From contig JAJYCP010000001.1 in NCBI GenBank assembly GCA_021778295.1, positions 2,390 through 66,389 on the forward strand: a stretch of 64,000 nt of DNA, in the 5' to 3' direction. Numbering within the stretch: the stretch's first letter is position 1; each line of letters starts with the position of its first letter. The translations under genes and the position numbers were made by a program. The notes beneath the pieces are model-generated. The model had not been told where the DNA came from and did not search any database. It was given only the letters and a program-made list of their open reading frames with translations. Shown here in pieces: positions 14,587-38,511 of the stretch. This DNA comes from a bacterium (lineage in GTDB: Bacteria; Patescibacteriota; Minisyncoccia; Phycocordibacterales; Phycocordibacteraceae).

Positions 14587-16794
14587 ATGCTCAAGCGGCT
14601 GGAAATCGTCGGTTTCAAATCCTTCGCCAAGAAAACCATCTTGGACTTTTCGAGCGTGACCACGGCGATCGTAGGACCGAATGGTTCCGGGAAGAGCAAT
14701 GTCGCCGAGGCGTTTCGCTTCGCGCTCGGCGAACAGTCGATGAAAAGCATGCGTGGCAAACGCACCGAAGATCTCATTTGGGGCGGCTCTCACTCGATGC
14801 CCCGCCTGATGCGCGCGTCGGTCGCCATCGTGTTTGACAACTCTCGCCGCATTTTCAAGATTGATTTCGATGAAGTGGTTATAGAACGCGCGGCTTTCCG
14901 CGATGGCACGAGCGAATACTCCATCAACGGTTCGCGCGTGCGCCTGCGCGATATCGAGGAACTTTTGGCCGGCGCAAACATCGGCGAGACAAGCCACCAC
15001 ATCATCTCCCAAGGCGAGGCGGACCGGATACTGCTCGCCTCGCCGCGCGACCGACGCGCGATGCTCGAGGACGCGCTCGGTCTACGAGTATATGAATTCA
15101 AAAAGCAGGAAGCAGAGAAGAAACTCCTGAAAACCGAAGATAATATCGCTCAGGTGAATTCGCTCCGACGAGAGCTTGCGCCGCACCTGCGTTTCCTCGA
15201 AAGCCAGGTAAAGAAACTTGAGCGCGCGCAGGCGCTCCGGGACACCCTTACGAGCGCGTGCCAGACGTACTTTGCGATCGAGGACGCTTTCCTTGAGCAA
15301 GAAAGGCGCGCTATCGCCGAGGAAAAGAAGAATGCGATTGATCGGCTGGCAGCCGCGACCGAAGAACTCTCCCGTATCGAGGAGCGCGCGACAAACGACG
15401 CCGAAGGTACGAAGCGTCTCGGGGCGGTACGCAGGGCAGAGGCGCTCGTTGAGCGTCTTCTGGGAGAGCGCAGCGTTCTCTCGCGTGAGATCGGACGCGT
15501 CGAAGGATCGCTCGCCGCTGCAAAACAGCGCAGCGTCAAAGTCGTGAATGATCCGTACGCAAAAGTTCCGCGTGAAGCCCTCAGCGCGCTCGCGGAAGAG
15601 ACGGAAAAGCAAGCGGCACACGCAGACACCCTCGAAGCCGCTCGCGCCGCACTACGCGCGCTTCACGGAGCTGTGCGCGCGTTCGTCGATCGTTTCATCG
15701 CGCCGGCCGACGATCTGCTCGCAGAAGAAGAGCATGCCGCATACGCGCTCGAGAACGAGCGTACCGAACTCCTCGGCAAAGATACCGTGCTCGCCGAGGA
15801 ACTTGAACGGGCGAAATCGGCGCTCGCGCGAGCGCGCGAAGATCTGACCGCGCACGACGAAACCGGCAAAGAATTGCATCGCCGTATCCTTGATCTCGCG
15901 CAAGCAAAAGCGCATGAGGAAAGCATGGTCGCAAAAAGCGAGGCGCGCGAACGCGCGCTCGGTTTCTTCACCGAAGAGCTCGAGCGCGATAAAGCGGAAG
16001 CGCTTGCGCTTGTCGGCGCCGCCGTACTCTCGTACGAGCCTCTGCCCGTGCTTCCCGCCGAAGAGCGGCGCGTGCAAGAAGAACGCAAACGCTCTCTCGA
16101 GCGCATAAAAATTCGCCTTGAGGAAGCGGGAGGTGCCGGCGAGGACATTCGACGGGAACACAAAGAAGTCTCGGAGCGCGAAGCATTCCTCGCGCGCGAG
16201 CTCGACGATCTCGCCGCGTCAGCTGCGGGCCTGCGCGCGCTCATTGTCGATCTTGAAACAGAACTTGCGAAACATTTCACCCTCGGGCTCACTCAGGTCA
16301 ACGCTTCGCTTAGCGAATACTTCGCGCTTATGTTCGGCGGCGGCAGCGCGCGTCTTGCGCTTGAAGAACCCGATGTAGAAGCCGAAGGTGAAGATCCCGA
16401 GGAGTCTCTCGATGAGGGAATGCCGAAGGAAAAAGAGAGACCCGGCATAGAAATCGTTGTCAATCTGCCGAAGAAGAAAGTACGCTCCCTCATGCAGCTG
16501 TCAGGCGGAGAGCGCGCGCTCACGAGCATCGCTCTCATTTTCGCTATGAGCCAAGTGAATCCGCCGCCGTTTTTGATACTGGACGAAACCGATGCGGCTC
16601 TTGACGAAGCAAATAGCCGGCGTTACGGCGACATGATTGAAAACCTCGCGCAGAAATCGCAGCTCATCGTCATTACGCACAACCGCGAGACCATGAGCCG
16701 CGCGGGCATCCTCTATGGTGTCACCATGGGCGGCGACGGCGTATCGAAGCTCCTCTCGGTCAAGTTCGACGAGGCGGTCGCCGTGGCGAAGTGA
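14587..16794 (+). CDS. smc: SMC-like chromosome segregation ATPase, short (735 aa), no recognisable hinge
   Basis: Walker A GPNGSGKSN, signature LSGGERALTSIALIFA, Walker B FLILDETDAALD. The middle ~500 aa is continuous Ala/Glu/Arg/Leu-rich coiled coil. The position directly after rnc matches the conserved rnc-smc synteny. Confidence 0.8.
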   Translation: MLKRLEIVGFKSFAKKTILDFSSVTTAIVGPNGSGKSNVAEAFRFALGEQSMKSMRGKRTEDLIWGGSHSMPRLMRASVAIVFDNSRRIFKIDFDEVVIERAAFRDGTSEYSINGSRVRLRDIEELLAGANIGETSHHIISQGEADRILLASPRDRRAMLEDALGLRVYEFKKQEAEKKLLKTEDNIAQVNSLRRELAPHLRFLESQVKKLERAQALRDTLTSACQTYFAIEDAFLEQERRAIAEEKKNAIDRLAAATEELSRIEERATNDAEGTKRLGAVRRAEALVERLLGERSVLSREIGRVEGSLAAAKQRSVKVVNDPYAKVPREALSALAEETEKQAAHADTLEAARAALRALHGAVRAFVDRFIAPADDLLAEEEHAAYALENERTELLGKDTVLAEELERAKSALARAREDLTAHDETGKELHRRILDLAQAKAHEESMVAKSEARERALGFFTEELERDKAEALALVGAAVLSYEPLPVLPAEERRVQEERKRSLERIKIRLEEAGGAGEDIRREHKEVSEREAFLARELDDLAASAAGLRALIVDLETELAKHFTLGLTQVNASLSEYFALMFGGGSARLALEEPDVEAEGEDPEESLDEGMPKEKERPGIEIVVNLPKKKVRSLMQLSGGERALTSIALIFAMSQVNPPPFLILDETDAALDEANSRRYGDMIENLAQKSQLIVITHNRETMSRAGILYGVTMGGDGVSKLLSVKFDEAVAVAK

Positions 16795-16811
16795 ACGAGG
16801 CCGATGTTTTA

Positions 16812-16830
16812 TTAAATGTTTAACATTTAA
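16812..16830. repeat. AT-only palindrome TTAAATGTT-t-AACATTTAA (copy 1 of 3), nested in CCGAT...ATCGG
   Basis: Lies between convergent smc and rnr. The same 19-nt core occurs at 34032-34050 and 34117-34135. Confidence 0.9.
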
Positions 16831-16848
16831 AATCGGGCCCTTTCATAC

Positions 16849-18798
16849 CTAGACGACTGGCACGAAATCGAGCTCTTTTTCGGCGACGCGAGCGGCGGAA
16901 AGCCGGACTCGAATGGGGTCACCGAGCTGATATGCTTTTTTGGTGCGGCGGCCGAGGAGCCGGTAGTGCTTCTCGTCGTATTCGAAATAATCATCACCGA
17001 CGTCATGGATGCGGATCATGCCGTCGGCGTGCGTCGTCTGCTCCTCGACATAGAGGCCGCGTTCGGTAACCCCTGAAATCACAGCATCGAACTCCTCGCC
17101 GATGCGCCCCGCGAGGAACTCCACCTGCTTCATCTTGATCGAGTCGCGCTCGGCGTCGGATGCCGCGACTTCGCGCTCGGAAGCATGGAGCGCGAGCGAA
17201 TCGAATTCCCGCATCTCTGCGGCGGTTATAGGCGCGCCGCCCGCATGTGCTTTTATAAGCCGGTGAATGACGAGGTCGGGATAGCGGCGGATAGGGGAGG
17301 TGAAATGCGTGTAATACTCAAACGCGAGTCCGAAATGGCCGATGTTGCGCGTCGCATACACGGCTTTGCTCATCGAGCGCAGTGTCGCCGTTTTTACGAG
17401 ATACTCTTCGGGCTTCCCCTTTACTGCCTCAAGAAGCTTATTCAACTCCGCGCCCGTCACGTTGCCGCCCGTTATCTTCAGGTGATACCCCATGACGCGC
17501 AGAAGATTCGCGAGATTCTCGATGCGATCGGCATCCGGCGCATCGTGAATGCGGTAGAGCGAAGAGAAATTCGATCCGCCATTTCTTGTAAGCGTGGCGA
17601 GATGTTTTGCGACCGCCTCGTTCGCAAGCAGCATGAAGTCCTCGATAAGGAGATTCGTCGCTTTGCGCTCCTTGAGCACCACCGCAATCGGCGCGCCCTG
17701 CTCATCGAGCTTCACTTTTACTTCCGGCGTGTCAAACTCGATGGCGCCTTTTGCCTGGCGCCGCGCGCGGATCTTTTTCGAAAGATTCAAGAGGAGAGAA
17801 AGTTCGCCGTGCATCGTGCCACTGCCCGCGTCAAGCACTTCCTGCGCATTCTCGTAGGTGAACCTTTTGTTTGAGTGAATGACCGTTTCGCCGAACCATT
17901 CGGCGACGATATTCGCCTCGGCGTCGAGCGTGAACACGGCGGAAACCGCGAGGCGATCCTGATCGGGATTGAGCGAGCAGAGATCATTTGAGAGAATTTC
18001 CGGGAGCATCGGGATGGTCCGGTCGACGAGGTACACGCTTGTCGCGCGTCCGCGCGCTTCAGTATCGAGCGCGCTTCCGGGCCGTACAAAAAAAGAAACA
18101 TCGGCGATATGCACGCCGACCTCGATATTTCCGCCGTCGAGCTTGCGTACCGAGAGCGCGTCGTCAAAATCTTTCGCATCGGCGGGGTCGATGGTGCACG
18201 TCGGCGCGTTGCGGAAATCGCGGCGCGCGCCCTCGCGCTCCGCCTCCTCCGCGAGCATTGCTCTCCCGTGCTCTTTGAGATATGCGGCGTCCTTCTCGAC
18301 GCCGGGAGGGAAGTCACTCGAGAATCCCTGGCCCAATGCGAGCGCCCGCATCTCAGTCTCGTGCACGCCCGCTTTACCGATAACCTCTTCGACGACACCC
18401 CAGGGATACGGCGTGTTCGCCTCCCAACCTTTCATGCGCACCAGCACTTTGTACCCGAGCTGCGCGCCTTTCACGTCCCGCACCTCGATCGGCACATGCA
18501 TTTTTTTGTAGTCGCTCGTGAGGAATGTTTTCCCGTTTTCCTCCACCAGAGCGCCGACGAAGGTCTCCCGCGCCCGTGAAATTATTTCAACCACCTTCCC
18601 GGCCTCACGCGCCGGCATCCGGCCCGAAGGATCACGGTACGTGCCCGCAGGCTCTACCTTCACGATGTCGCCCGTAAGCGCATGCCCCGTCCACTGCGGC
18701 GGTATGAGGAGATCCTCGCTGTCTTCGCCGACAGAGAAAAAACCGAAGCCTTTCCGGGTCATCGTTATCGGACCTTCATAGAGATGTGCGTCTGCCAT
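16849..18798 (-). CDS. rnr: Ribonuclease R (RNB-family 3'-5' exoribonuclease with C-terminal S1 domain)
   Basis: RNB motifs (IDPADAKDFDDALSV, HFGLAFEYYTHFTSPIRRYPDLVIHR), N-terminal cold-shock-like OB folds and a C-terminal S1 domain. Confidence 0.9.
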   Translation of the reverse strand: MADAHLYEGPITMTRKGFGFFSVGEDSEDLLIPPQWTGHALTGDIVKVEPAGTYRDPSGRMPAREAGKVVEIISRARETFVGALVEENGKTFLTSDYKKMHVPIEVRDVKGAQLGYKVLVRMKGWEANTPYPWGVVEEVIGKAGVHETEMRALALGQGFSSDFPPGVEKDAAYLKEHGRAMLAEEAEREGARRDFRNAPTCTIDPADAKDFDDALSVRKLDGGNIEVGVHIADVSFFVRPGSALDTEARGRATSVYLVDRTIPMLPEILSNDLCSLNPDQDRLAVSAVFTLDAEANIVAEWFGETVIHSNKRFTYENAQEVLDAGSGTMHGELSLLLNLSKKIRARRQAKGAIEFDTPEVKVKLDEQGAPIAVVLKERKATNLLIEDFMLLANEAVAKHLATLTRNGGSNFSSLYRIHDAPDADRIENLANLLRVMGYHLKITGGNVTGAELNKLLEAVKGKPEEYLVKTATLRSMSKAVYATRNIGHFGLAFEYYTHFTSPIRRYPDLVIHRLIKAHAGGAPITAAEMREFDSLALHASEREVAASDAERDSIKMKQVEFLAGRIGEEFDAVISGVTERGLYVEEQTTHADGMIRIHDVGDDYFEYDEKHYRLLGRRTKKAYQLGDPIRVRLSAARVAEKELDFVPVV

Positions 18799-19647: not shown

Positions 19648-19718
19648 GCGAGGGGTGAGGTGATTTTTGAGTACGCCGTATTTTTCTGCTGAAAATCACC
19701 TCACCTCACCTCTCGCCT
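19646..19718. repeat. Long imperfect inverted repeat / hairpin between the KH gene and trmD
   Basis: AGGCGAGGGGTGAGGTGATTTT ... AAAATCACCTCACC(tcacc)TCTCGCCT. It has 14 perfect bp plus 7-8 more, and a ~24-nt loop. Confidence 0.85.
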
Positions 19719-19726
19719 TCACATCA

Positions 19727-20386
19727 ATGTTGCGATTTCATCTCATTACCCTTTTTTCTGACGCATGCGACACGTACCTGTCGGCGTCCATCATCGGCCG
19801 TGCGCGCACAGAGAAGAAGATTTCAATAACGTATCAAAACCCGCGCGACTTCGTCGACAACAAATGGGGGAAAGTTGACGAGCGCCCCTATGGCGGCGGT
19901 CCGGGGATGGTGATGACGGCGCTTCCGATTGTGAGAGCAGTTGAGAAGTCTCTTAAGACGCGCGCCGCCGCGAAGCGGCGGCGCGTGATCATCTGGTTTT
20001 CTCCAAGCGGGAAGCAGTTTACAAACAAAGATGCCGATGCCCTCGCAAAATACCAAGATGTCATCTTGGTATGCGGACGGTATGAGGGCATAGATGAACG
20101 GGCAAAAAAAATTCTCAAAACGCTCGCGCCTCTGAAAGAGTTCGCGGTCGGAGAAGCAGTCTATACCGGCGCTGAAGTACCGGCGCTTGCGATCGTTGAT
20201 GCGGTTACGCGCCGGCTGCCGGGTGTGCTCGGTAAAGACACATCGGTGGAGGAGCGTCGCATCGCCTCTCGCGCGGTTTACACCCGCCCAGAAACCATTT
20301 CATATAAGGGGAAGAACTACCGTGTTCCCAAAGTCCTCCAGACCGGCCACCATGCGAACATCGACGCCTGGCGCACGCGTCGCTGA
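19727..20386 (+). CDS. trmD: tRNA (guanine37-N1)-methyltransferase
   Basis: ITLFSDACDTYLSASIIGRA, YGGGPGMVM and CGRYEGIDER motifs. Confidence 0.9.
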   Translation: MLRFHLITLFSDACDTYLSASIIGRARTEKKISITYQNPRDFVDNKWGKVDERPYGGGPGMVMTALPIVRAVEKSLKTRAAAKRRRVIIWFSPSGKQFTNKDADALAKYQDVILVCGRYEGIDERAKKILKTLAPLKEFAVGEAVYTGAEVPALAIVDAVTRRLPGVLGKDTSVEERRIASRAVYTRPETISYKGKNYRVPKVLQTGHHANIDAWRTRR

Positions 20387-30981: not shown

Positions 30982-33897
30982 ATGGTACTAACGCCTTCTT
31001 TTCAAGAAGCATACGGGAAATTGAATGCGCAGCAGAAGATAGCGGTCGATACGATCTACGGCCCGGTGCTTGTCATTGCCGGTCCCGGCACCGGCAAGAC
31101 GCAGATACTCGCGCTCCGCATCGGGAATATCCTCCTCAAAGCCGCCGGAGCGAAACCGGACGAAATCCTCGCGCTTACCTATACGGACAGCGCGGTGGCG
31201 ACACTTCGCGCGCGGCTCGCGCGTTTCATCGGCACGGCCGCGTATCGTGTCCGCATCCATACCTTCCACAGCTTCGCCCGTTCAATCCTCGAATTGCGTC
31301 CCGATCTATTCCCGCGTATCGCGCTCGGCACACATCTGTCGGCAGTACGCGGTATCGCGCTCATGGAAAGGTTGCTCGACGAAGGATCCTATAGGAAAAT
31401 ACGCAATCCGAAAAATCCGCACCGGGCTGCGAAAGATCTCCTCGATTTTATGGGAAAGTTGAAGCAAGAGCATTACACCCCGGAGAGTTATCATGCCGAA
31501 CTCGCCGCGGCATATGAGACTCTTGCAGCCGACCCCGACCGCATTCACGCGCGCGGAGCGCATGAAGGAAAGGAAAAAGGCGAGCATCTGCGGTATCGGG
31601 AGCGCATTGAGAAACATCTCGAGGCCGCGGAGCTCTTCGCCGCATACCAAGAGGCTCTGGAAAAGGAGTCGCTCTACGATTATGAAGACCTCATCAGCGA
31701 AGCCGTGCGCGGGCTCGAGGAAAACGAGGAATTTCGTGCAGAAGTGGGAGAGCGCTCGCAATTCGTGCTCGCGGACGAGCATCAGGACGCGAATCCGTCC
31801 CAGAACCGTCTTCTTGAGCTTGTCACTGATTTTGACGGCGCGCCGAATCTCTTCATCGTCGGCGATGAAAAACAGGCGATTTACCGTTTCCAAGGAGCAT
31901 CGCTCGCTTCATTTTTCTATTTTAGGGAGAAATATCCCGACGCGACGCTCATCTCACTTGATGAGAATTATCGTTCGACCGATCGCCTGCTCCTTGCGGC
32001 GCATGATCTTATCGCTCCCGCTCCCGTGCCTTCTCCAAAACTGCGCCCGCGGCTCACGGCCGTGCGCGGAGCGGGCGGGCAACTGTTCGAGGCGGTATGC
32101 GATACGCCAAGCGCGGAATACGGAGTCATCCGCGCCCGTATCGAACAACTTCACGGATCGGGCGTGCCGTACGAAGACATCGCCATCCTCACGAAGAAAA
32201 ACGCGGATGTGCTCGCTCTGGCGGAGATGCTTCGCACCGCCGGTATTCCGGAAGACCATACAAGCGCGGAGATAAGCGCTCTTGCGCATCCGGCAATCTC
32301 GCTTTTTATAGCGCTCATCCGCGCCGCGACGAACCTTGAGGATGACGCACCGCTTGCTCGCGCGCTCTTTTTGCCCGGCTTGCCCGGCACGCTCGGGGAG
32401 CGTATGCGGCTTCTCGCGCTTCCGCGGGAAGGGAAGCCGCTTGCCGCCGTGCTTGCGGAGAAGGGTACCGGCGAAATGCGTGCGTGGATGCGGAAGCTCA
32501 CGAAACTCTCGGAAGAGATGCCGGCGACACCGCTCATTCCTTGGCTTTCGCGGCTCGCTCATCTGAGCGGCTTTGTCGCGGGGATACTTTCTCTCGCCGA
32601 AAACGAGAGCGCATACGAAGCGTATCAGGGTTTTATGGATGAGGCGGCGTTCCTCGCCAAGGAGAATCCGAGCGCGACGGCATCGGATTTCCTGGCCTAC
32701 CTTACGCGCATCGAGAAGTACGAGCTTAAGATACAGCGCCCTCGCACAAAACGTTCGGGCGTGCGCATCATGACCGTGCATGGCGCGAAAGGACTTGAAT
32801 TCCCGCATGTCATCATCGCGCACGCGACCGACGAGACATGGCTGCGCGGGCGGGCCGACGAGTTTTCCCTGCTGCTTAAGAGCGAAGACGATGAACACGA
32901 TATGCGCCGCTTGCTTTATGTGGCGCTCACGCGCGCCAAAGACAGCGTGATCATAACGCGATCACAGACGACTGAAGAGAACCATGCGCAGACGCCGCTC
33001 AGGTTTCTCATCGATCTCGCGCCGCATCTGGGAAAGGCGGATTTCCCGCCATCGGTCTCCGTCCCTGTACCGTACGAAGCGCGCACCATACTTGATCCTG
33101 TCTTCCTGAAAGCGCGCCTGCTTGCACAGGGTTTTTCGCCGACCGGTTTTAATAACTACTGCGCCTCGCCGTGGCAATACTATTTCCGTACGCTCCTGCG
33201 GCTTCCGGACGCGCAGACGCGCTGGATGCTTTTCGGCACGGCCATTCATGCCGGCCTGAAATCCTATGCCGATAACGTACGGAAAGGCACCGCGGCGCCC
33301 GAAGATGCTGTCGTCGCCTTCCGTTACGAGCTGTCGCGTCTTCCGATTACTGCGCTCGATAGAAAGGAGCTCATGGAAACCGGTGCGCAGGCGCTCCGCG
33401 CCTACCTTGCGAAGGAAGGGCATTCCATGAAAGATGCGTGCGAATCTGAATTTCTTATAGAAGTATCGCTTGCAGTCCCGGGCGTCGGTGCCGTGCCGCT
33501 TACCGGGAAGCTTGATCGTTTGGATAGGAAAGCGGACGGTTCAGTCCTGGTCATCGATTACAAAACCGGTAAAGCAAGAAGCGAAAACGACATAAAAGGT
33601 CGTACCAAAAATAGCACGGGTGACTACTACCGCCAGCTGGTTTTTTATAAGTTGCTGCTCAAAAAAGACGGCCGGTACACCACGAACGAGGCTGCGCTTC
33701 ACTTCGTCGAGCCGAACGAAAAGGGAGACATCATTATCCGCCGCTTCACGATCAGCGATGCCGAGGTCGAAGCGCTCGAAGCGGAGCTTGTTTCTGCGGC
33801 ACAGGCAATCGCAGACGGTTCCGCATTTACCGCAGCGTGTGATTCTGCCAGATGCGATTACTGCGATTTGGCAGGGCTTCTTCTCAAACAGGAATGA
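30982..33897 (+). CDS. UvrD/PcrA-type helicase fused to a C-terminal Cas4/AddB-like PD-(D/E)XK nuclease with a 4-Cys cluster
   Basis: Walker A GPGTGKTQ and LADEHQDANPSQ. Nuclease motifs GKLDRLD...VIDYKTGK...YRQLVFY. Cys pattern YCASPWQYY ... CDSARCDYCD. Confidence 0.85.
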   Translation: MVLTPSFQEAYGKLNAQQKIAVDTIYGPVLVIAGPGTGKTQILALRIGNILLKAAGAKPDEILALTYTDSAVATLRARLARFIGTAAYRVRIHTFHSFARSILELRPDLFPRIALGTHLSAVRGIALMERLLDEGSYRKIRNPKNPHRAAKDLLDFMGKLKQEHYTPESYHAELAAAYETLAADPDRIHARGAHEGKEKGEHLRYRERIEKHLEAAELFAAYQEALEKESLYDYEDLISEAVRGLEENEEFRAEVGERSQFVLADEHQDANPSQNRLLELVTDFDGAPNLFIVGDEKQAIYRFQGASLASFFYFREKYPDATLISLDENYRSTDRLLLAAHDLIAPAPVPSPKLRPRLTAVRGAGGQLFEAVCDTPSAEYGVIRARIEQLHGSGVPYEDIAILTKKNADVLALAEMLRTAGIPEDHTSAEISALAHPAISLFIALIRAATNLEDDAPLARALFLPGLPGTLGERMRLLALPREGKPLAAVLAEKGTGEMRAWMRKLTKLSEEMPATPLIPWLSRLAHLSGFVAGILSLAENESAYEAYQGFMDEAAFLAKENPSATASDFLAYLTRIEKYELKIQRPRTKRSGVRIMTVHGAKGLEFPHVIIAHATDETWLRGRADEFSLLLKSEDDEHDMRRLLYVALTRAKDSVIITRSQTTEENHAQTPLRFLIDLAPHLGKADFPPSVSVPVPYEARTILDPVFLKARLLAQGFSPTGFNNYCASPWQYYFRTLLRLPDAQTRWMLFGTAIHAGLKSYADNVRKGTAAPEDAVVAFRYELSRLPITALDRKELMETGAQALRAYLAKEGHSMKDACESEFLIEVSLAVPGVGAVPLTGKLDRLDRKADGSVLVIDYKTGKARSENDIKGRTKNSTGDYYRQLVFYKLLLKKDGRYTTNEAALHFVEPNEKGDIIIRRFTISDAEVEALEAELVSAAQAIADGSAFTAACDSARCDYCDLAGLLLKQE

Positions 33898-34026
33898 TTT
33901 CCAGAGGGAGCGATGTGCGAAAGTTTTTAAAAAGCACGTATGTGTATTCTGGCATCAGTTGATTCCCGACTGCACTGCGAACCCTATAGGAAAGGAAGGA
34001 AGGTATACCATGTCAGAAACGCTACC

Positions 34027-34055
34027 TTAAATTAAATGTTAAACATTTAATTTAA
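34027..34055. repeat. Perfect 29-nt AT-only palindrome TTAAATTAAATGTT-a-AACATTTAATTTAA (copy 2)
   Basis: Arms checked base by base. Confidence 0.95.
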
Positions 34056-34112
34056 ATGCGTACTCTCGCGATCTCCCTAAGATGACATCTTATAGTTATA
34101 GATTCTTTCTCC

Positions 34113-34139
34113 TAAATTAAATGTTTAACATTTAATTTA
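34113..34139. repeat. Perfect 27-nt AT-only palindrome TAAATTAAATGTT-t-AACATTTAATTTA (copy 3)
   Basis: Arms checked base by base. It lies 57 bp downstream of copy 2. Confidence 0.95.
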
Positions 34140-34147
34140 CTCCGCAC

Positions 34148-34214
34148 GTTTTTACTGGAATCGGAGAGAACGCCCTGTCCGCTTAAGGGCGGGGATGGCG
34201 GGACTGTTTTATGG
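34148..34214 (+). repeat. Conserved hairpin element, copy A (GTTTTTACTGGAATCGG - GAACG CCCTGTCC gcttaa GGGCGGGG ATGG - CTGTTTTATGG)
   Basis: It shares a 17-nt leader, the GAAYG/ATG(R) flanks and the CCC..GGGG stem with two copies at 59220-59383. It overlaps the dsbA-like stop codon. Confidence 0.7.
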
Positions 34215-34889
34215 TGCTTCCGCGAGCGCTCGATCGACAAGCTGCTTCACAACGTCATAAGGATAGGCGCCGTCCATGACAACGGGCGTTTGGCCTGCGA
34301 CGAGGATGAGTGAGTAGGGCGCGCCGCGCGCTCCGATAGCGAGAGCGTTCTGACGGTCGGCCAGAATGCGCGCATCGACCGTTGTTGCAGCATCGGCGTA
34401 ACAGGCGGCAAAGGCACTCCCCGAGACACCCGCTGCGTATGCGAGCACGCCGTAGTTCATCGGGTCAACCGGCTGATTGGCGAAGAGGGAATCAGCAAAC
34501 TTCCAGAACGCTTCATTGCCCGCGGTTTTCGCGACGCATTCAGCGGCGCGGGCGTCATTCATGGCATTCGGATGAATTTCAGTGAGCGGGAATTCGCGGT
34601 ACACCCAAGCGACCTTGCCGCTCGCACCCTCATTCGCAATGATTTGGTGGAGCGTTTCATTAAAGCTCTTGCAGAACTGACAGTCAAAATCGGCGTATTC
34701 GACAATCATAACCTTGGCTGCGGGATTGCCGAAAATATGATCAGTCGGGCCGACCGGCCGTACCAACGCAGGGTTGCCGAGGAGAGAGCCCGTCGAAGGT
34801 TCTTTTTTTGCGACCGAGAAATACACGGCGCCGGCGATAATCAATCCGCCCAAAATAATCGCGACCGGGAGCGCATACGACGATCTCAT
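34209..34889 (-). CDS. DsbA-family thiol:disulfide oxidoreductase, N-terminally anchored
   Basis: TM LPVAIILGGLIIAGAVYF and a CxxC active site in EYADFDCQFCKSF. Confidence 0.85.
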   Translation of the reverse strand: MRSSYALPVAIILGGLIIAGAVYFSVAKKEPSTGSLLGNPALVRPVGPTDHIFGNPAAKVMIVEYADFDCQFCKSFNETLHQIIANEGASGKVAWVYREFPLTEIHPNAMNDARAAECVAKTAGNEAFWKFADSLFANQPVDPMNYGVLAYAAGVSGSAFAACYADAATTVDARILADRQNALAIGARGAPYSLILVAGQTPVVMDGAYPYDVVKQLVDRALAEAP

Positions 34890-35467
34890 AACGGAAGCGT
34901 GTGAGTCATGGTCGGAGGAGCGGTTATCGTGCGGTCCCAGAGAGACGTGTCAAGTTTTATGTCGCGTATGTCGAGCAGGTCTTTATACTTGAGCGCGCCA
35001 TGCGCAAGCGCATAATCATAGAGTTCGCGCGTGAGACGGACATCTTCGATGCAGTATGCGCGTACCAATTCCTGTTTCTCTTCTTTCCACCATTCGACCG
35101 CCTTAAGCCCGTCGCCCGCTTTCCCGCGTCCAAGCGTCGCTTCGGCGAGCGATTGGAGCCGGATACGCCGCCCGAGAACCTTCTGCACCTCGACAAGCAG
35201 ATCAAGCGAGCGCAAACGCGTCAGGTCGCCCGGGTAATAGCGATTCAGGAGCGGTATATCGAACGCATCGGAATTGAAACCGATAAGCATATCGGCGTGT
35301 TCAAGGATATGCCAGAGGCGGGGGAGTTCCTCTTTCGTGTACGAAGAATATTCGCCCGTTTTCGAATCATGAATGGCCACGACGGTGAGCTCCTGCTCTT
35401 GTACGTCGATGCGGCCGCGTACCATAGAGTCAGATATTGACTCAATGTCAAAAGTAATCGCGCGCAT
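34886..35467 (-). CDS. RNase H-like / DEDD-type 3'-5' exonuclease domain protein
   Basis: ITFDIES, LIGFNSDAFDIPLL and YCIEDVRLTRELY, in the usual Exo I/II/III order. Confidence 0.7.
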   Translation of the reverse strand: MRAITFDIESISDSMVRGRIDVQEQELTVVAIHDSKTGEYSSYTKEELPRLWHILEHADMLIGFNSDAFDIPLLNRYYPGDLTRLRSLDLLVEVQKVLGRRIRLQSLAEATLGRGKAGDGLKAVEWWKEEKQELVRAYCIEDVRLTRELYDYALAHGALKYKDLLDIRDIKLDTSLWDRTITAPPTMTHTLPL

Positions 35468-35471
35468 ACGA

Positions 35472-36740
35472 TCAGCTACCGGCGCGCAGGTGCGTCGGCA
35501 GTTCTGAAACGGGAAGACCGATCTCCTCTCCCGTGCGAAGTATTTTCATACGGACGGTCTGATGCGCAATTTCATTCGCGCCGTAGGCGAGAAAAAGAGG
35601 AATACCGCGCTTCACCGCATCCTTCACCTGCTCGCCGAGCGTCCGGTCGGTTATGTTGACGAAAACGCGGCCGCCTTCCTTGCGCAGCGTATCGGCAAAA
35701 GCTTGCGCGGCGGGTATATCCTCGGCACTCGGCGTGCCGAGGTAAAGTTGGGGCGTGTCCGCATTTCCCGTGAGCGGGAGCGCGTGCGTTTCGACGAAGT
35801 CGGCAAGCGTGACGTCGCCTATCGCAAAGCCGACCGCCGGGATTGGCTCGCCGCCGTAGAGCGCGATAAGCCGGTCATAACGCCCGCCGCCAAACAGCGC
35901 GCGCGCATTTGCCGGATTCGTATCAAAGACCTCAAAGACCATGCCGGTGTAGTAATCAAAGCCGCGCGTAATGGAGGAATCGAAAACGACGTTATTCACG
36001 CCGCGCGCCTTGAGCGTATCAATACGCTCGAAGAGTGCACGTTTTTCGCGCGCCACCGTTGGAGCATCGCCTGCATTCTCAATATATGCGAGAGGATCCC
36101 TCGCGCTCAGGGCGCTCAGGGCGACCGTAAAAGCCTCAGGCGTCATTTTCGATTTTTTATCGAGGAGCCGCAGATACCGGCGGATGCCTTCGCCTTTGAG
36201 CCCGGCGGCTTCGCATGCGGCGTTTAAAAGCGGACGGGCGTTCATCCGGATGACGAAGTCGCTTTCGCGCGCTCCGAAGTCTCGCAGGATACGCGCGGCG
36301 AGCGTGACGATTTCGATATCCGCTTCGCCCTCAGGAGGTCCGATTAAATCGATATCCGCCTGATAAAACTCGCGTAAACGGCCTTTCTGCGGCCGCTCGT
36401 AGCGGAAACGATTGCCGATGGAGAACCAGCGCAGCGGGTAAGCGAGTTCACGCCGCTTTCCGGCTACCATGCGCGCCAGCGTCGGCGTCATCTCGGGACG
36501 GAGCGTTACGCGCCGATCACCGCGGTCGGTAAAAGTATACGTCTGCTCATCCACGATTTCTTCCGACGTCTTCGCTTCATAGAGCTCTGCGCGCTCCAGC
36601 GGAGAGGCGTTATATTCCTCGTAGCCCCAGAGCGCAAGCGTCTGTCGGATACGCTCAAAGAGCGCTCTCTGGCGTGCAAATGCGTCAGGATAGAAGTCAC
36701 GGACGCCTTTATAGGGGTCGGTCGGAAGCGGCTCGGCCAT
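35472..36740 (-). CDS. hisS: Histidyl-tRNA synthetase
   Basis: Class II motifs (RYERPQKGRLREFYQ, GGGRYD) and a C-terminal anticodon-binding domain. Confidence 0.92.
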   Translation of the reverse strand: MAEPLPTDPYKGVRDFYPDAFARQRALFERIRQTLALWGYEEYNASPLERAELYEAKTSEEIVDEQTYTFTDRGDRRVTLRPEMTPTLARMVAGKRRELAYPLRWFSIGNRFRYERPQKGRLREFYQADIDLIGPPEGEADIEIVTLAARILRDFGARESDFVIRMNARPLLNAACEAAGLKGEGIRRYLRLLDKKSKMTPEAFTVALSALSARDPLAYIENAGDAPTVAREKRALFERIDTLKARGVNNVVFDSSITRGFDYYTGMVFEVFDTNPANARALFGGGRYDRLIALYGGEPIPAVGFAIGDVTLADFVETHALPLTGNADTPQLYLGTPSAEDIPAAQAFADTLRKEGGRVFVNITDRTLGEQVKDAVKRGIPLFLAYGANEIAHQTVRMKILRTGEEIGLPVSELPTHLRAGS

Positions 36741-36752
36741 ACCCCGATTGTA

Positions 36753-37289
36753 TCAGATACCGGTTGAAGAGGGCGGGGTCGAAACGTATTTGAGAATGAG
36801 GTCGCGCATCTGTTCAGGCTTCGGGATGCCGTGCATGTGGAACTTGTCGACGGCACCGGCGCTCTGCACATTGATATCGCCGATATTGAGGAGCGAGGGG
36901 AGCACACCCCGTACGTCGGTGGTCACGTCCTGGACGCGATTAAGCAATACGCTCGAGACTTCACGGGAGAAATATCCGCGCTGTTTGATGTCTACGATGC
37001 GTTCGTTGGTGAGCACCCACGCGTTTAGGAAGTAGCGGGTAAAAGCGCTCCATGCGCCTGTCCACGAGACCAAGAGCCAGACGCCGAGTGCCGCACGCAT
37101 AAGAGGTATCTGTACGGTAAAAAATGCCGCATACTGCGCCAAAGGCGGCGCGAGCCGCAGGAAACCCGGGAGCGCAAAGGGAATAACCGCAAGCAGCGCA
37201 AACGGCAACAGTTCGGCAAGGAAGAGAAACCAATGCTTGCGCGCCTGCTTCACGACGTGTTCGCCCGGCTCGAGTTCAAATTCTTTCAT
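36753..37289 (-). CDS. Membrane protein with a bacterial PH (YdbS/YdbT-like) domain
   Basis: MKEFELEPGEHVVKQARKHWFLFL, then two TM helices, then a PH-like C-terminal part. The ATG at 37289 overlaps the upstream stop (ATGA). Confidence 0.65.
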   Translation of the reverse strand: MKEFELEPGEHVVKQARKHWFLFLAELLPFALLAVIPFALPGFLRLAPPLAQYAAFFTVQIPLMRAALGVWLLVSWTGAWSAFTRYFLNAWVLTNERIVDIKQRGYFSREVSSVLLNRVQDVTTDVRGVLPSLLNIGDINVQSAGAVDKFHMHGIPKPEQMRDLILKYVSTPPSSTGI

Positions 37290-37546
37290 AGTAGTAGAGA
37301 GCCGGAAAGCGCATATGCTATGAGCGCGAATGAAACAAAGAGATGCAGAGCGATCGCGGGGAAAGCGACCCATGATGCGTGAGAGTATTTGAGCCAGTGA
37401 TAGATGGCAACGAGCGTATAGAGCGTCCAGAAAACGAAGATAGCGTAAAGAAACCACTCGACTAGCACGCCTTGCGAAAGTAGCGTGGGAAAGTGCGTGA
37501 GCAGGATTTTGGGTGGCGAAAACGGCTGGAGCGGCTGGCTCGGCAT
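37286..37546 (-). CDS. Small membrane protein (86 aa), hypothetical
   Basis: Two or three TM helices. Translationally coupled to the downstream PH-domain gene. Confidence 0.45.
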   Translation of the reverse strand: MPSQPLQPFSPPKILLTHFPTLLSQGVLVEWFLYAIFVFWTLYTLVAIYHWLKYSHASWVAFPAIALHLFVSFALIAYALSGSLLL

Positions 37547-37602
37547 CAGGGAAATGATACTACGAGGGCGAAGTGAGGCCAATACTGTTTGTGGAACAAC
37601 AG

Positions 37603-38511
37603 TCAGTATTGGGCCGAACGAACCCTCGCGTGCCTGCATACGAGGACGCGCGGAGCACCGTACTGATCGGTGCGTATCTCGACGGTGAATCCTCGTTTCA
37701 AGAACAATTCCTCGGCCGCTCCTATCGAGGGACTGTCGCACTCAATCCATGCCACGCCGCTTCGCTCGAGCCGTGCGGGCAGTTCGTCCGCGATACGGCG
37801 GATGAGCGAGAGACCGTCGGGGCCCGCGCGCAGCGCGGATTCCGGTTCCCATAGAGCAACGCTTTCCGGGAGCATGCGGTTCTCCGGGATGTAGGGCGGA
37901 TTCGCGGCTATGACGTCGAAGCGCATGCCGGCGGGGAAAGGCGTGAAAAGGTCACCGATGCGGATATCCGCACGTCCGGCATCGAGACTATTTTCGCGTA
38001 TGTTTTTCCTGATGGTCGTCTCGTGCGCAGGATCACGTTCTCCAAAATACACTTGCGCGTCCGGCAATCGCGCGAGTGCCGCACAACCGATGGCGCCCGA
38101 GCCCGCGCAGAGGTCCAAGAAAGTTGATGGTCGCACAGGCGAGCCCGCCTTCGGAATTGCATATTTTTCTGCTGAAAAATTGCTCTTATTCGCGCCGTTA
38201 CCACAAGAGTACTTCAAGTTTTCTAATTCGCTTCGCTCATAAGAAACTTTGGTCGCGCGCTCCGTACGTTCCTCAGGCGGGTTCGCCTGTGCGACACAAA
38301 TGGAAGAAAGAAGTTGCTCTGTCCACCACTCGGTCTCGGGGCGGGGGATGAGCGGGCGAGAGTCGAGGAATATCTTCAAGCCGAGAAACGGCTGCCAGCC
38401 GATGACGTATGCGACCGGCTCGCCCTTGGCGAGCCGGCGCCCATCCGCGTCAAATTCCCCGCTTCTTTTCCCGTTGTATTTTTCTTTGAGAAGCCGCTCC
38501 TCGTCCGTCAT
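37603..38511 (-). CDS. prmC: Release-factor glutamine N5-methyltransferase (HemK/PrmC) with a ~60-aa insertion
   Basis: IGWQPFLGL...LIPRPETE, FLDLCAGSGAIG and IAANPPYIP. Confidence 0.85.
   Translation of the reverse strand: MTDEERLLKEKYNGKRSGEFDADGRRLAKGEPVAYVIGWQPFLGLKIFLDSRPLIPRPETEWWTEQLLSSICVAQANPPEERTERATKVSYERSELENLKYSCGNGANKSNFSAEKYAIPKAGSPVRPSTFLDLCAGSGAIGCAALARLPDAQVYFGERDPAHETTIRKNIRENSLDAGRADIRIGDLFTPFPAGMRFDVIAANPPYIPENRMLPESVALWEPESALRAGPDGLSLIRRIADELPARLERSGVAWIECDSPSIGAAEELFLKRGFTVEIRTDQYGAPRVLVCRHARVRSAQY

Follow-up and report, generated by a model that had tools for sequence, protein, structure and literature searches.

Short A/T-rich palindromes in a Parcubacteria genome are probably REP-type repeats with a RAYT-like Y1 transposase

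We analysed a family of short, A/T-rich, perfect palindromes in a 64,000-nt stretch of contig JAJYCP010000001.1 (assembly GCA_021778295.1, Patescibacteriota), referred to in its entirety as the window. With a probability of roughly 0.8, the three palindromes of the window are repetitive extragenic palindromic (REP)-type repeats, present as one singlet and one inverted doublet similar to a REP doublet forming a hairpin (REPIN), and their cognate enzyme is a Y1 HUH/tyrosine transposase that resembles REP-associated tyrosine transposases (RAYTs) and is encoded elsewhere in the same Parcubacteria genome. The cognate transposase was seen at one locus in the data examined. The repeat was dispersed, mostly in extragenic DNA, across a clade of related Parcubacteria assemblies with a G+C content of ~57%, in multiple copies per genome.

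Palindromes of the window

The window has a G+C content of ~57%. A search for the core TTAAATGTT-N-AACATTTAA with up to three mismatches returned exactly three sites in the 64 kb, compared to zero in 100 dinucleotide-preserving shuffles. These sites are the palindromes listed in Table 1, each of which has a single unpaired centre base. Their positions, the shared core and the distance of 57 nt between the two full palindromes at 34 kb had been given in an original prediction made from the sequence, and were confirmed by our reading of the sequence and by a repeat finder.

Table 1. Repeat features of the window
Feature	Position	Strand	Description	Basis
REP copy 1	34027-34055	.	perfect 29-nt palindrome, 14+1+14, centre A at 34041	sequence read and repeat finder
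REP copy 2	34113-34139	.	perfect 27-nt palindrome, 13+1+13, centre T at 34126	sequence read and repeat finder
REPIN-like inverted doublet	34027-34139	.	two REPs and a unique 57-nt spacer	repeat finder pair, 100% complementary
REP copy 3, singlet	16812-16830	.	TTAAATGTT-T-AACATTTAA, 19-nt core, 9+1+9, centre T	
Possible extended hairpin around copy 3	16799-16840	.		folding only

Copy 1 reads TTAAATTAAATGTT-A-AACATTTAATTTAA, with the family core TTAAATGTT-A-AACATTTAA at 34032-34050, and copy 2 reads TAAATTAAATGTT-T-AACATTTAATTTA. Copy 2, which recurs as an identical 27-mer at L045 1077-1103, is the exact reverse complement of 34028-34054 and therefore differs from its inverted partner only at the centre base. 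As DNA hairpins, copies 1 and 2 folded with -9.7 kcal/mol (z = -5.6) and -7.7 kcal/mol (z = -9.2), respectively, and the whole doublet can be folded as a single long hairpin of single-stranded DNA (-23.6 kcal/mol, z = -9.3). The doublet sits in a 311-nt gap where, according to Pfam, an AddA-like UvrD/PD-(D/E)XK gene (30982-33897, +) converges on a DsbA-like gene (34209-34889, -). This gap was identical in four of five independent assemblies and differed by 1 nt in the fifth.

Copy 3 lies 17 nt after the smc stop codon and 18 nt after that of rnr, in the gap where a gene with an SMC_N match (14587-16794, +) converges on an RNB/RNase R-like gene (16849-18798, -). A possible longer hairpin around this copy would have a G+C-richer lower stem (GGCCGAT / ATCGGGCC, one bulge) under the A/T apex. 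It folded with -9.0 kcal/mol as DNA and with -10.2 and -11.4 kcal/mol as RNA, with weak z-scores (-1.4 to -3.2). The palindromes do not represent a known RNA family, as Rfam and transfer RNA (tRNA) scans of the window yielded no match.

The gap at 34 kb also contains a micro open reading frame (ORF) of six codons (AAGGAAGGAAGG-N6-ATG...TAA, 34010-34030), present just as the original prediction had it, including its AAGGAAGGAAGG motif. The micro-ORF was not conserved outside identical contigs. Like the 57-nt spacer and the other flanks of this gap, it had no match elsewhere; only the palindromes of the gap recur, and the micro-ORF stretch is thus outside the repeated unit. We found no evidence that it is functional, and there is nothing downstream on its strand to regulate; we treated it as incidental. 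The 19-nt core itself also encodes ATG-TTW-AAC-ATT-TAA on both strands, which we regarded as incidental to an A/T palindrome that includes ATG/CAT.

The Y1 gene bracketed by the repeats

Three copies of the repeat in locus L045 ('Parcubacteria group bacterium 20-58-5') lie beside an ORF that encodes a 236-aa Y1_Tnp (IS200-like HUH) protein, P0001. Exact cores were located 29, 81, and 265 nt upstream of this gene, and a decayed copy with three mismatches was located downstream. In L158, which encodes an 84% identical protein (P0002), three exact cores lie upstream of the gene, one starts just after its stop codon, and a further triplet of copies is found 3.5 kb away. The metagenome-assembled genome (MAG) of the window provided a third case. 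The DsbA-like protein of the window is encoded on contig DAICBE010000009.1 of GCA_027422565.1, which is 99.985% identical to window positions 31209-37889 (6.7 kb). Another contig of the same MAG, DAICBE010000039.1 (L181), encodes the Y1 protein P0271, a member of the P0002 cluster that is also encoded by contigs from the same samples. Upstream of the P0271 gene lie exact AT palindromes at distances of 137, 86, and 27 nt as well as a one-mismatch copy at 277 nt, and a further exact copy follows 1 nt past the stop codon. A Y1 gene flanked on both sides by the same repeat within one genome was thus found in L045, L158, and L181.

A decayed palindrome, GGATGTTTAACATTCCCAAC, directly follows the stop codon of the L045 Y1 gene (L045 89-103) and resembles the REP of a sister lineage (TGGGAATGTTaAACATTCCCA, L079). 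Judged from this sequence, it suggests that the AT-only REP may have evolved from a G+C-containing ancestor via changes in the outer arms.

A large protein collection contained 566 homologues of the Y1 protein, almost all of them ~236 aa long and named Parcubacteria, Paceibacterota, Kaiserbacteria, or Minisyncoccia, which places the organism of the window among the bacteria of the candidate phyla radiation. Among the 50%-identity cluster representatives of ~15 billion proteins, there were 66 profile matches at E <= 1e-30 and 1,784 at E <= 1e-10. The gene order recA-ftsK-PG_binding ... Y1 ... TPR-Wzy_C-rplJ-rplL-mechanosensitive (MS) channel, in which PG_binding stands for a large PG_binding_1 protein, was retained in L158, L169, L173, and L174, i.e., across homologues 84%, 74%, and 61% identical to P0001. 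On contigs of 0.99 and 0.59 Mb, each exact Y1 protein was found encoded at a single site, and no tnpB-like partner was called beside the Y1 gene in the loci whose neighbourhoods were inspected. A gene found at one place and in conserved synteny is like what has been described for RAYTs, which are single-copy, vertically inherited and housekeeping-like, and not for insertion sequences (PMC5581495).

A second Y1 gene was found at L069 1505-2405. Its product is 30% identical to the L045 protein and has a canonical YIHRNP motif, and the gene is flanked by a perfect palindrome of its own, TGTGCAACACC-W-GGTGTTGCACA. Partial copies of rnr and smc (~80 and ~70 nt of the respective 3' ends) enclose this cassette, and the full smc gene ends ~1.2 kb upstream; going by the sequence, the smc/rnr junction seems to have been duplicated around the cassette. 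Given the different flanking palindrome and the identity of only 30%, we rejected the L069 protein as the cognate enzyme of the AT REP.

Motifs and predicted fold of the enzyme

The Pfam model PF01797 (Y1_Tnp) matched the Y1 protein above its cut-off (31.4 vs 23 bits). The only NCBIfam match was REP_Tyr_transpos (NF047646, REP-associated tyrosine transposase). Residues H84 and H86 (in NHFHLL) and Y140 and Y144 (in YLAFYILVKN) were invariant in 36 sequences. An AlphaFold model of the protein, with a predicted local distance difference test (pLDDT) score of 89.7 and a predicted template modelling (pTM) score of 0.88, was compared to the PDB with Foldseek. The best match was 4ER8_A (E = 8e-6), followed by the IS608, ISDra2, and IS200 transposases. 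The 4ER8 entry is the E. coli REP-associated tyrosine transposase bound to a REP hairpin. The HUH motif, the catalytic tyrosine and the RAYT/TnpA fold, the latter as predicted by the model, thus appear to be conserved in the Parcubacteria Y1 proteins.

The repeat family in related genomes

Scanning one genome per species for the exact core yielded 77 loci. Most of these were single matches in A/T-rich genomes, several within coding sequence (..ILNVEHL..), and are mostly due to chance. The exact core was found nine, five, and five times in three assemblies with a G+C content of 55-60%, and once in a Paceibacterota assembly. The clean1989 assembly carries nine exact copies over six contigs, L158 carries eight copies in 19.5 kb, and L174 carries nine copies in 9.8 kb. 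The window and related loci, 172,683 nt in total, contain 23 exact cores and a single degenerate copy (three mismatches), so the AT REP family is very homogeneous and degenerate copies, as judged from these mismatch-tolerant local scans, are really rare. The centre base of the copies was always A or T. Flanking bases that differ between copies extend the palindrome by at least 3 nt in 12 of 23 copies, compared to nine of 62 chance matches elsewhere; examples are GGATTTAAATG...CATTTAAATCC and TTCAGGATTAAATG...CATTTAATCCTGAA.

Genes around the copies were called using a codon-usage score and checked with Pfam. Most copies lie 1-22 nt past a stop codon, between convergent or tandem genes, and they are often clustered. 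A one-mismatch copy at L158 position 3833 occupies a divergent gap 4.9 kb upstream of the Y1 gene. The location in gaps between convergent genes, part of the original prediction, therefore holds for all copies of the window, as judged from their Pfam neighbours, but not beyond it, where tandem, divergent and in-ORF copies occur. Genes adjoining the copies (smc, rnr, addA-like, dsbA-like, short-chain dehydrogenase, ABC transporter genes, S1-domain protein, pth, and frr) had no common functional theme. Canonical G+C-rich terminators were found beside REP copies in L026, L040, and L045.

Orthologous sites could be compared in several cases. L074 is orthologous to the smc/rnr gap of the window (~90% nt identity) and has an exact core at the same site. 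L069 is a more distant orthologue of this gap (~72-77% nt), in which the exact core was kept and the remaining gap diverged. The number of copies at orthologous sites turned over (one in L026 vs two in L040; one in L017 and L077 vs two in L075), and the centre base was flipped between orthologous copies. By our own count, eight of nine adjacent non-redundant pairs had opposite centre bases.

Some copies are located within ORFs. A 27-nt palindrome, GGATTTAAATGTTAAACATTTAAATCC (nine codons, ..DLNVKHLN..), is in frame in a RecG-like ORF at L019 3770-3796 and L033 7643-7669; it lies in the stretch that separates the wedge domain (residues 16-142) from the DEAD helicase domain (298-488) and is conserved in the two assemblies. 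Another copy is in frame inside a holB-like ORF (L039 1402-1420). Outside the clade, three verrucomicrobial genomes (Opitutae/Puniceicoccaceae; L012 3461, L043 2252, and L073 1790) share one site, AAGGAGTCAATTTAAATGTTAAACATTTAAATTGGGCGGGCC, that holds the same 19-mer once and is readable as a Shine-Dalgarno sequence followed by ATG-TTA-AAC-ATT-TAA. In this unrelated lineage, the match is probably a coincidence.

Lineage-specific palindromes beside Y1 homologues

A metagenome scan with the Y1 protein alignment yielded 80 loci with homologues of 50-74% identity. The AT core was found beside none of the 80. Palindromes were counted in the 67 loci that had at least 120 nt on either side of the gene. 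A perfect odd-centred palindrome was present within 120 nt of the gene in 52 of these and on both sides of it in 35. The upstream copy is usually placed 15-30 nt before the start codon and the downstream copy 2-15 nt past the stop codon. Besides the L079 palindrome given above, examples are TGTTTAAGTCtGACTTAAACA (L084), TACCGAAGTTaAACTTCGGTA (L122), and GTAAAGAGGTTtAACCTCTTTAC (L135).

These palindromes share a design of 8-19-nt arms around a 1-nt centre, with a conserved apex A-R-G-T-Y-W-R-A-C-Y-T. Among 37 distinct arms, position -5 was A in 35, position -3 was G in 36, position -2 was T in all 37, and position -1 was C or T; the centre was A or T in 113 of 120 copies. Outer arm positions vary by lineage yet remain perfectly complementary. 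The same was evident at GTY-N-RAC sites taken without pre-selection for palindromes: arm positions 4-10 were complementary in 81-98% at sites <150 nt from the gene vs 26-45% at sites >500 nt away. Of 124 distant GTY-N-RAC sites, 12 were clear dispersed copies, some with non-local arm types.

Arm mismatches grew with protein distance, from zero below 10% distance to a mean of 4.6 at 40-50%. The correlation between arm and Y1 protein divergence (Spearman rho 0.46) was reached by none of 500 permutations, although shared descent alone could contribute to it. Comparison of the sequences thus suggests that the repeat is specific to the lineage of its enzyme, as would be the case under co-evolution.

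Dispersed palindromes with the family apex and arms unlike those of the local Y1 flanks were observed at L092 4078 and 4335, L134 259, L139 4484, and L150 572. They hint at more than one REP subfamily, or Y1 gene, per genome in some sister genomes.

Other palindromes of the window

Two further perfect palindromes were noticed in the window. A 44-nt even palindrome, GAGAGCCATTCGATTTCCAGCTAGCTGGAAATCGAATGGCTCTC (2601-2644), extends over the 3' end of an ORF with a sortase domain (1884-2624, +); it has no relation to the REP family and may represent a terminator or a different repeat. A 23-nt odd-centred palindrome, ATACCAAGATG-T-CATCTTGGTAT (20050-20072), is located inside a trmD-like ORF (19667-20386, +), and its apex differs from the REP consensus.

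Alternative explanations

The Y1 gene and its flanking palindromes could together be an autonomous insertion sequence of the IS200/IS605 type, with the lone palindromes being solo ends or derivatives similar to miniature inverted-repeat transposable elements. The protein does have a Y1_Tnp domain, palindromes lie at both gene ends, the IS608 and ISDra2 TnpA structures matched the model nearly as well as 4ER8, and intermediates between insertion sequences and REPtrons have been described by Quentin et al. (class 3, PMC6006769). We nonetheless consider this explanation unlikely, as the gene keeps the same rplJ-rplL neighbourhood across 61-84% protein identity, occupies one place per 0.6-1 Mb contig for each exact protein, and has no tnpB-like gene called next to it. 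Its flanking hairpins are identical perfect palindromes and not distinct left and right ends, the protein has 236 aa compared to 125-152 residues in the IS200/IS605-family TnpA chains matched in the PDB, and the RAYT model was its only NCBIfam match. Another possibility is that the palindromes serve as double-stranded operators or nucleoid-protein sites for a symmetric dimer (e.g., a Fur-family-like protein with 9-1-9 sites), in which case their association with Y1 would reflect autoregulation only. The exactness of the 19-nt core in nearly all copies does indicate sequence-specific recognition, the odd-centred 9-1-9 symmetry suits a dimer, copies cluster, several to a gap, and the copy at L158 3833 occupies a divergent promoter gap. 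What makes this explanation quite improbable is that most copies are found past stop codons, between convergent genes or in ORFs and not at promoters, that the adjoining genes lack a shared function, and that the constant partner has the fold of an HUH nuclease, which acts on single-stranded DNA. Moreover, bases outside the core co-vary so as to keep complementarity (37 arms), as for a hairpin or cruciform substrate and not a fixed operator. Comparison to known operators (Fur/Zur/PerR 7-1-7 boxes, parS, Ter, CtrA, and others) produced only a vague likeness to a gamma-proteobacterial Zur half-site with the wrong spacing, and the idea of a Zur-like operator was dropped because the sites are not at promoters.

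If the palindromes were transcript 3'-end structures, selected at gene ends to terminate transcription in both directions or to stabilise mRNA as hairpins, their typical site just past stop codons and often between convergent genes would be explained. A scan for the intrinsic-terminator consensus found none in either gap of the window, leaving the REP hairpin as the only obvious structure there, and E. coli REPs are known stabilisers of upstream mRNA (cited in PMC6006769). As RNA, however, the hairpins are weak, in line with the original prediction (-8 to -12 kcal/mol, A-U-only stems, no U tract), and structure alone would not demand an invariant 19-nt sequence. Canonical G+C-rich terminators stand right beside copies in L026, L040, and L045, some copies are inside ORFs or upstream of genes, and the association with Y1 would be left unexplained. 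We therefore regard a 3'-end structure as very unlikely to be what the repeats primarily are; terminator or mRNA-stabiliser function could be a secondary role. The original prediction favoured Xer/dif-type recombination sites, since copy 1, read as 11-7-11, has one arm that agrees with the E. coli XerD arm at 8 of 11 positions. This arm is consistent with the known dif sequence. The likeness proved incidental, with the equivalent palindromes of sister lineages having quite different arms, and the genome pattern search for the core that had been proposed alongside it revealed a multi-copy, dispersed motif, with five to nine exact copies in each of three related assemblies. The arms are perfectly symmetric around one base (9-1-9 or longer, apex ARGTY-W-RACYT), not two different arms in an 11-6-11 arrangement, and the copies bracket an HUH gene and not a tyrosine recombinase. 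As a partial test, ten mid-size ORFs of the window were scanned with Pfam, and none had a Phage_integrase domain. Xer/dif sites can thus be practically dismissed. Two other parts of the original prediction fared better: its general inference that a protein recognises these sites in a sequence-specific manner, rather than their being ordinary terminators, was upheld, and the REP-like element that it listed among its alternatives is supported by the dispersed family and the bracketed Y1 gene.

Points weighing against a REP/RAYT system

Several observations speak against assigning the palindromes and the Y1 protein to a REP/RAYT system. The NF047646 equivalog scores were 31.9 and 30.7 bits, and the cut-off of 80 was not reached. 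A sequence (profile) search of the PDB gave only marginal matches to ISDra2, which is why a structure prediction was needed. The link between the window and the Y1 gene was established by metagenomic binning (same MAG, same samples) and not from a closed genome. Since related copies were gathered by an exact-core pattern, their identity is partly by construction, which the mismatch scans of the window and related loci mitigate. Copy numbers are low, loci with a singlet are more numerous than those with a doublet, and a single REP already forms a complete palindrome. Within +/-5 kb of the gene, most other lineages had palindromes at its flanks only, so proliferation may not extend to the whole family. 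Canonical REPs carry a 5' GT[AG]G foot on a bulged, imperfect hairpin (PMC6006769, PMC3479197); here, the core flanks vary and contain no GTAG/GTGG, and the stems pair perfectly around one centre base. E. coli TnpA-REP requires a 5' GTAG foot and a bulged stem and leaves the five tip-proximal base pairs untouched (PMC3479197, PMC6006769). The tip, which is not contacted by that enzyme, is the conserved part here, so the E. coli mode of recognition is not simply transferable.

In a tentative and rather doubtful alternative, the Parcubacteria Y1 proteins and their perfect palindromes would form a separate class of domesticated HUH enzymes across the candidate phyla radiation (CPR), kept next to rplJ-rplL for a host job, with the AT REPs as one proliferating offshoot. 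Such an enzyme would read the tip of the hairpin, or would bind a cruciform or duplex as a dimer, and would not depend on a guide tetranucleotide. The host job might be, e.g., the processing or marking of DNA or RNA at gene ends, and each perfect palindrome would represent a self-contained, 'collapsed' REPIN.

Proposed mechanism

For the REP/RAYT-like system that we favour, a mechanism can be proposed by analogy with E. coli TnpA-REP and the TnpA of IS200/IS605 elements. The palindrome would fold into a hairpin on transiently single-stranded DNA. Its conserved tip would form a T-Y-W-R-A loop closed by a G:C pair, stacked on A:T and R:Y pairs, and the Y1 enzyme would recognise this tip. The enzyme would then nick and rejoin the strand via a 5'-phosphotyrosine intermediate, which may allow REPs to be copied, inverted or deleted. 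Because the element is perfectly palindromic, the same hairpin is present on both strands and an inversion affects the centre base alone. If the repeats also benefit the host at gene ends, by protecting mRNA 3' ends or by weak termination, this putative role would be secondary.

Significance

The standard example of a transposase that remains within a single lineage and sustains a population of very small repeats is the REP/RAYT system, which is known chiefly from Proteobacteria, along with a small number of other phyla. Genomes of the CPR, including Parcubacteria, are typically described as stripped-down, with ~1 Mb and little room for repeats. The present data would extend the REP/RAYT logic to the CPR/Parcubacteria, with the gene at a conserved chromosomal position across deep divergence. 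Our literature search found nothing linking RAYTs or REPINs with CPR bacteria, which is an absence of evidence within the literature searched only.

With perfect palindromes whose tip is conserved and which lack the GTAG foot, the repeat design implies a different way for an HUH enzyme to read a hairpin, and the at least 37 arm variants around a fixed apex offer a natural series for studying enzyme-hairpin specificity. On a practical level, the REP family would explain A/T-only islands and contig breaks in these MAGs, and could be used as a marker for binning and strain typing. It also carries a warning for annotation, as the proteins labelled 'transposase' here are probably not ordinary insertion sequences.

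Comparison with known systems

The dif site of XerC/XerD shares with the palindromes only a short, A/T-rich, roughly palindromic sequence and the resemblance of one arm. It is single-copy and located at the terminus, has two different 11-nt arms and a 6-bp centre, and is cut by tyrosine recombinases, none of which seems to hold here. Elements of the IS200/IS605 family (IS608, ISDra2) have the same HUH/Y1 catalytic fold, which recognises hairpins of single-stranded DNA at the element ends. In contrast to the syntenic Parcubacteria gene with its identical perfect palindromes, they are mobile and multi-copy, often carry tnpB, and have distinct, imperfect left and right hairpins.

Two groups of TnpA-Y1 proteins described as REPtron-like by Quentin et al. 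(2018), subclass 2.6 of Bacteroidetes and class 3 of Planctomycetes and Acidobacteria, also have atypical flanking structures without GT[AG]G and further genomic copies (PMC6006769). Class 3 differs by a CnGA foot and a Y----Q motif, and subclass 2.6 by the spacing between HUH and Y (median of 82 aa vs ~56-58 aa in Parcubacteria) (PMC6006769). Neither was described as having perfect palindromes with a conserved apex.

Compared to canonical RAYTs, the 236-aa Parcubacteria enzyme has extra N- and C-terminal helices and YxxxYxxxxN instead of YIHxNP. The repeats, in turn, differ from those of canonical REPtrons in their low copy numbers, mostly as singlets, and in having a CPR bacterium as host. 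As the GT[AG]G foot and the NCBIfam cut-off set it apart from canonical REP/RAYT systems, we filed the Parcubacteria system as a variant of the REPtron. It nevertheless behaves like a REPtron in every respect that could be tested. As in the REPtrons of E. coli and Pseudomonas (PMC3116915, PMC3479197, PMC5581495, PMC6006769), short palindromic repeats are dispersed extragenically, often just after genes and in clusters or, less commonly than as singlets, in inverted doublets, the organisation for which REPINs are named (PMC3116915), and copies in frame within genes are known for canonical REPs as well. The Y1 HUH gene is likewise bracketed by its own repeats and may be inherited vertically like a host gene, each lineage has its own repeat sequence, which diverges along with the enzyme, and the closest structural match of the Parcubacteria protein, 4ER8, is itself the enzyme of a REPtron.

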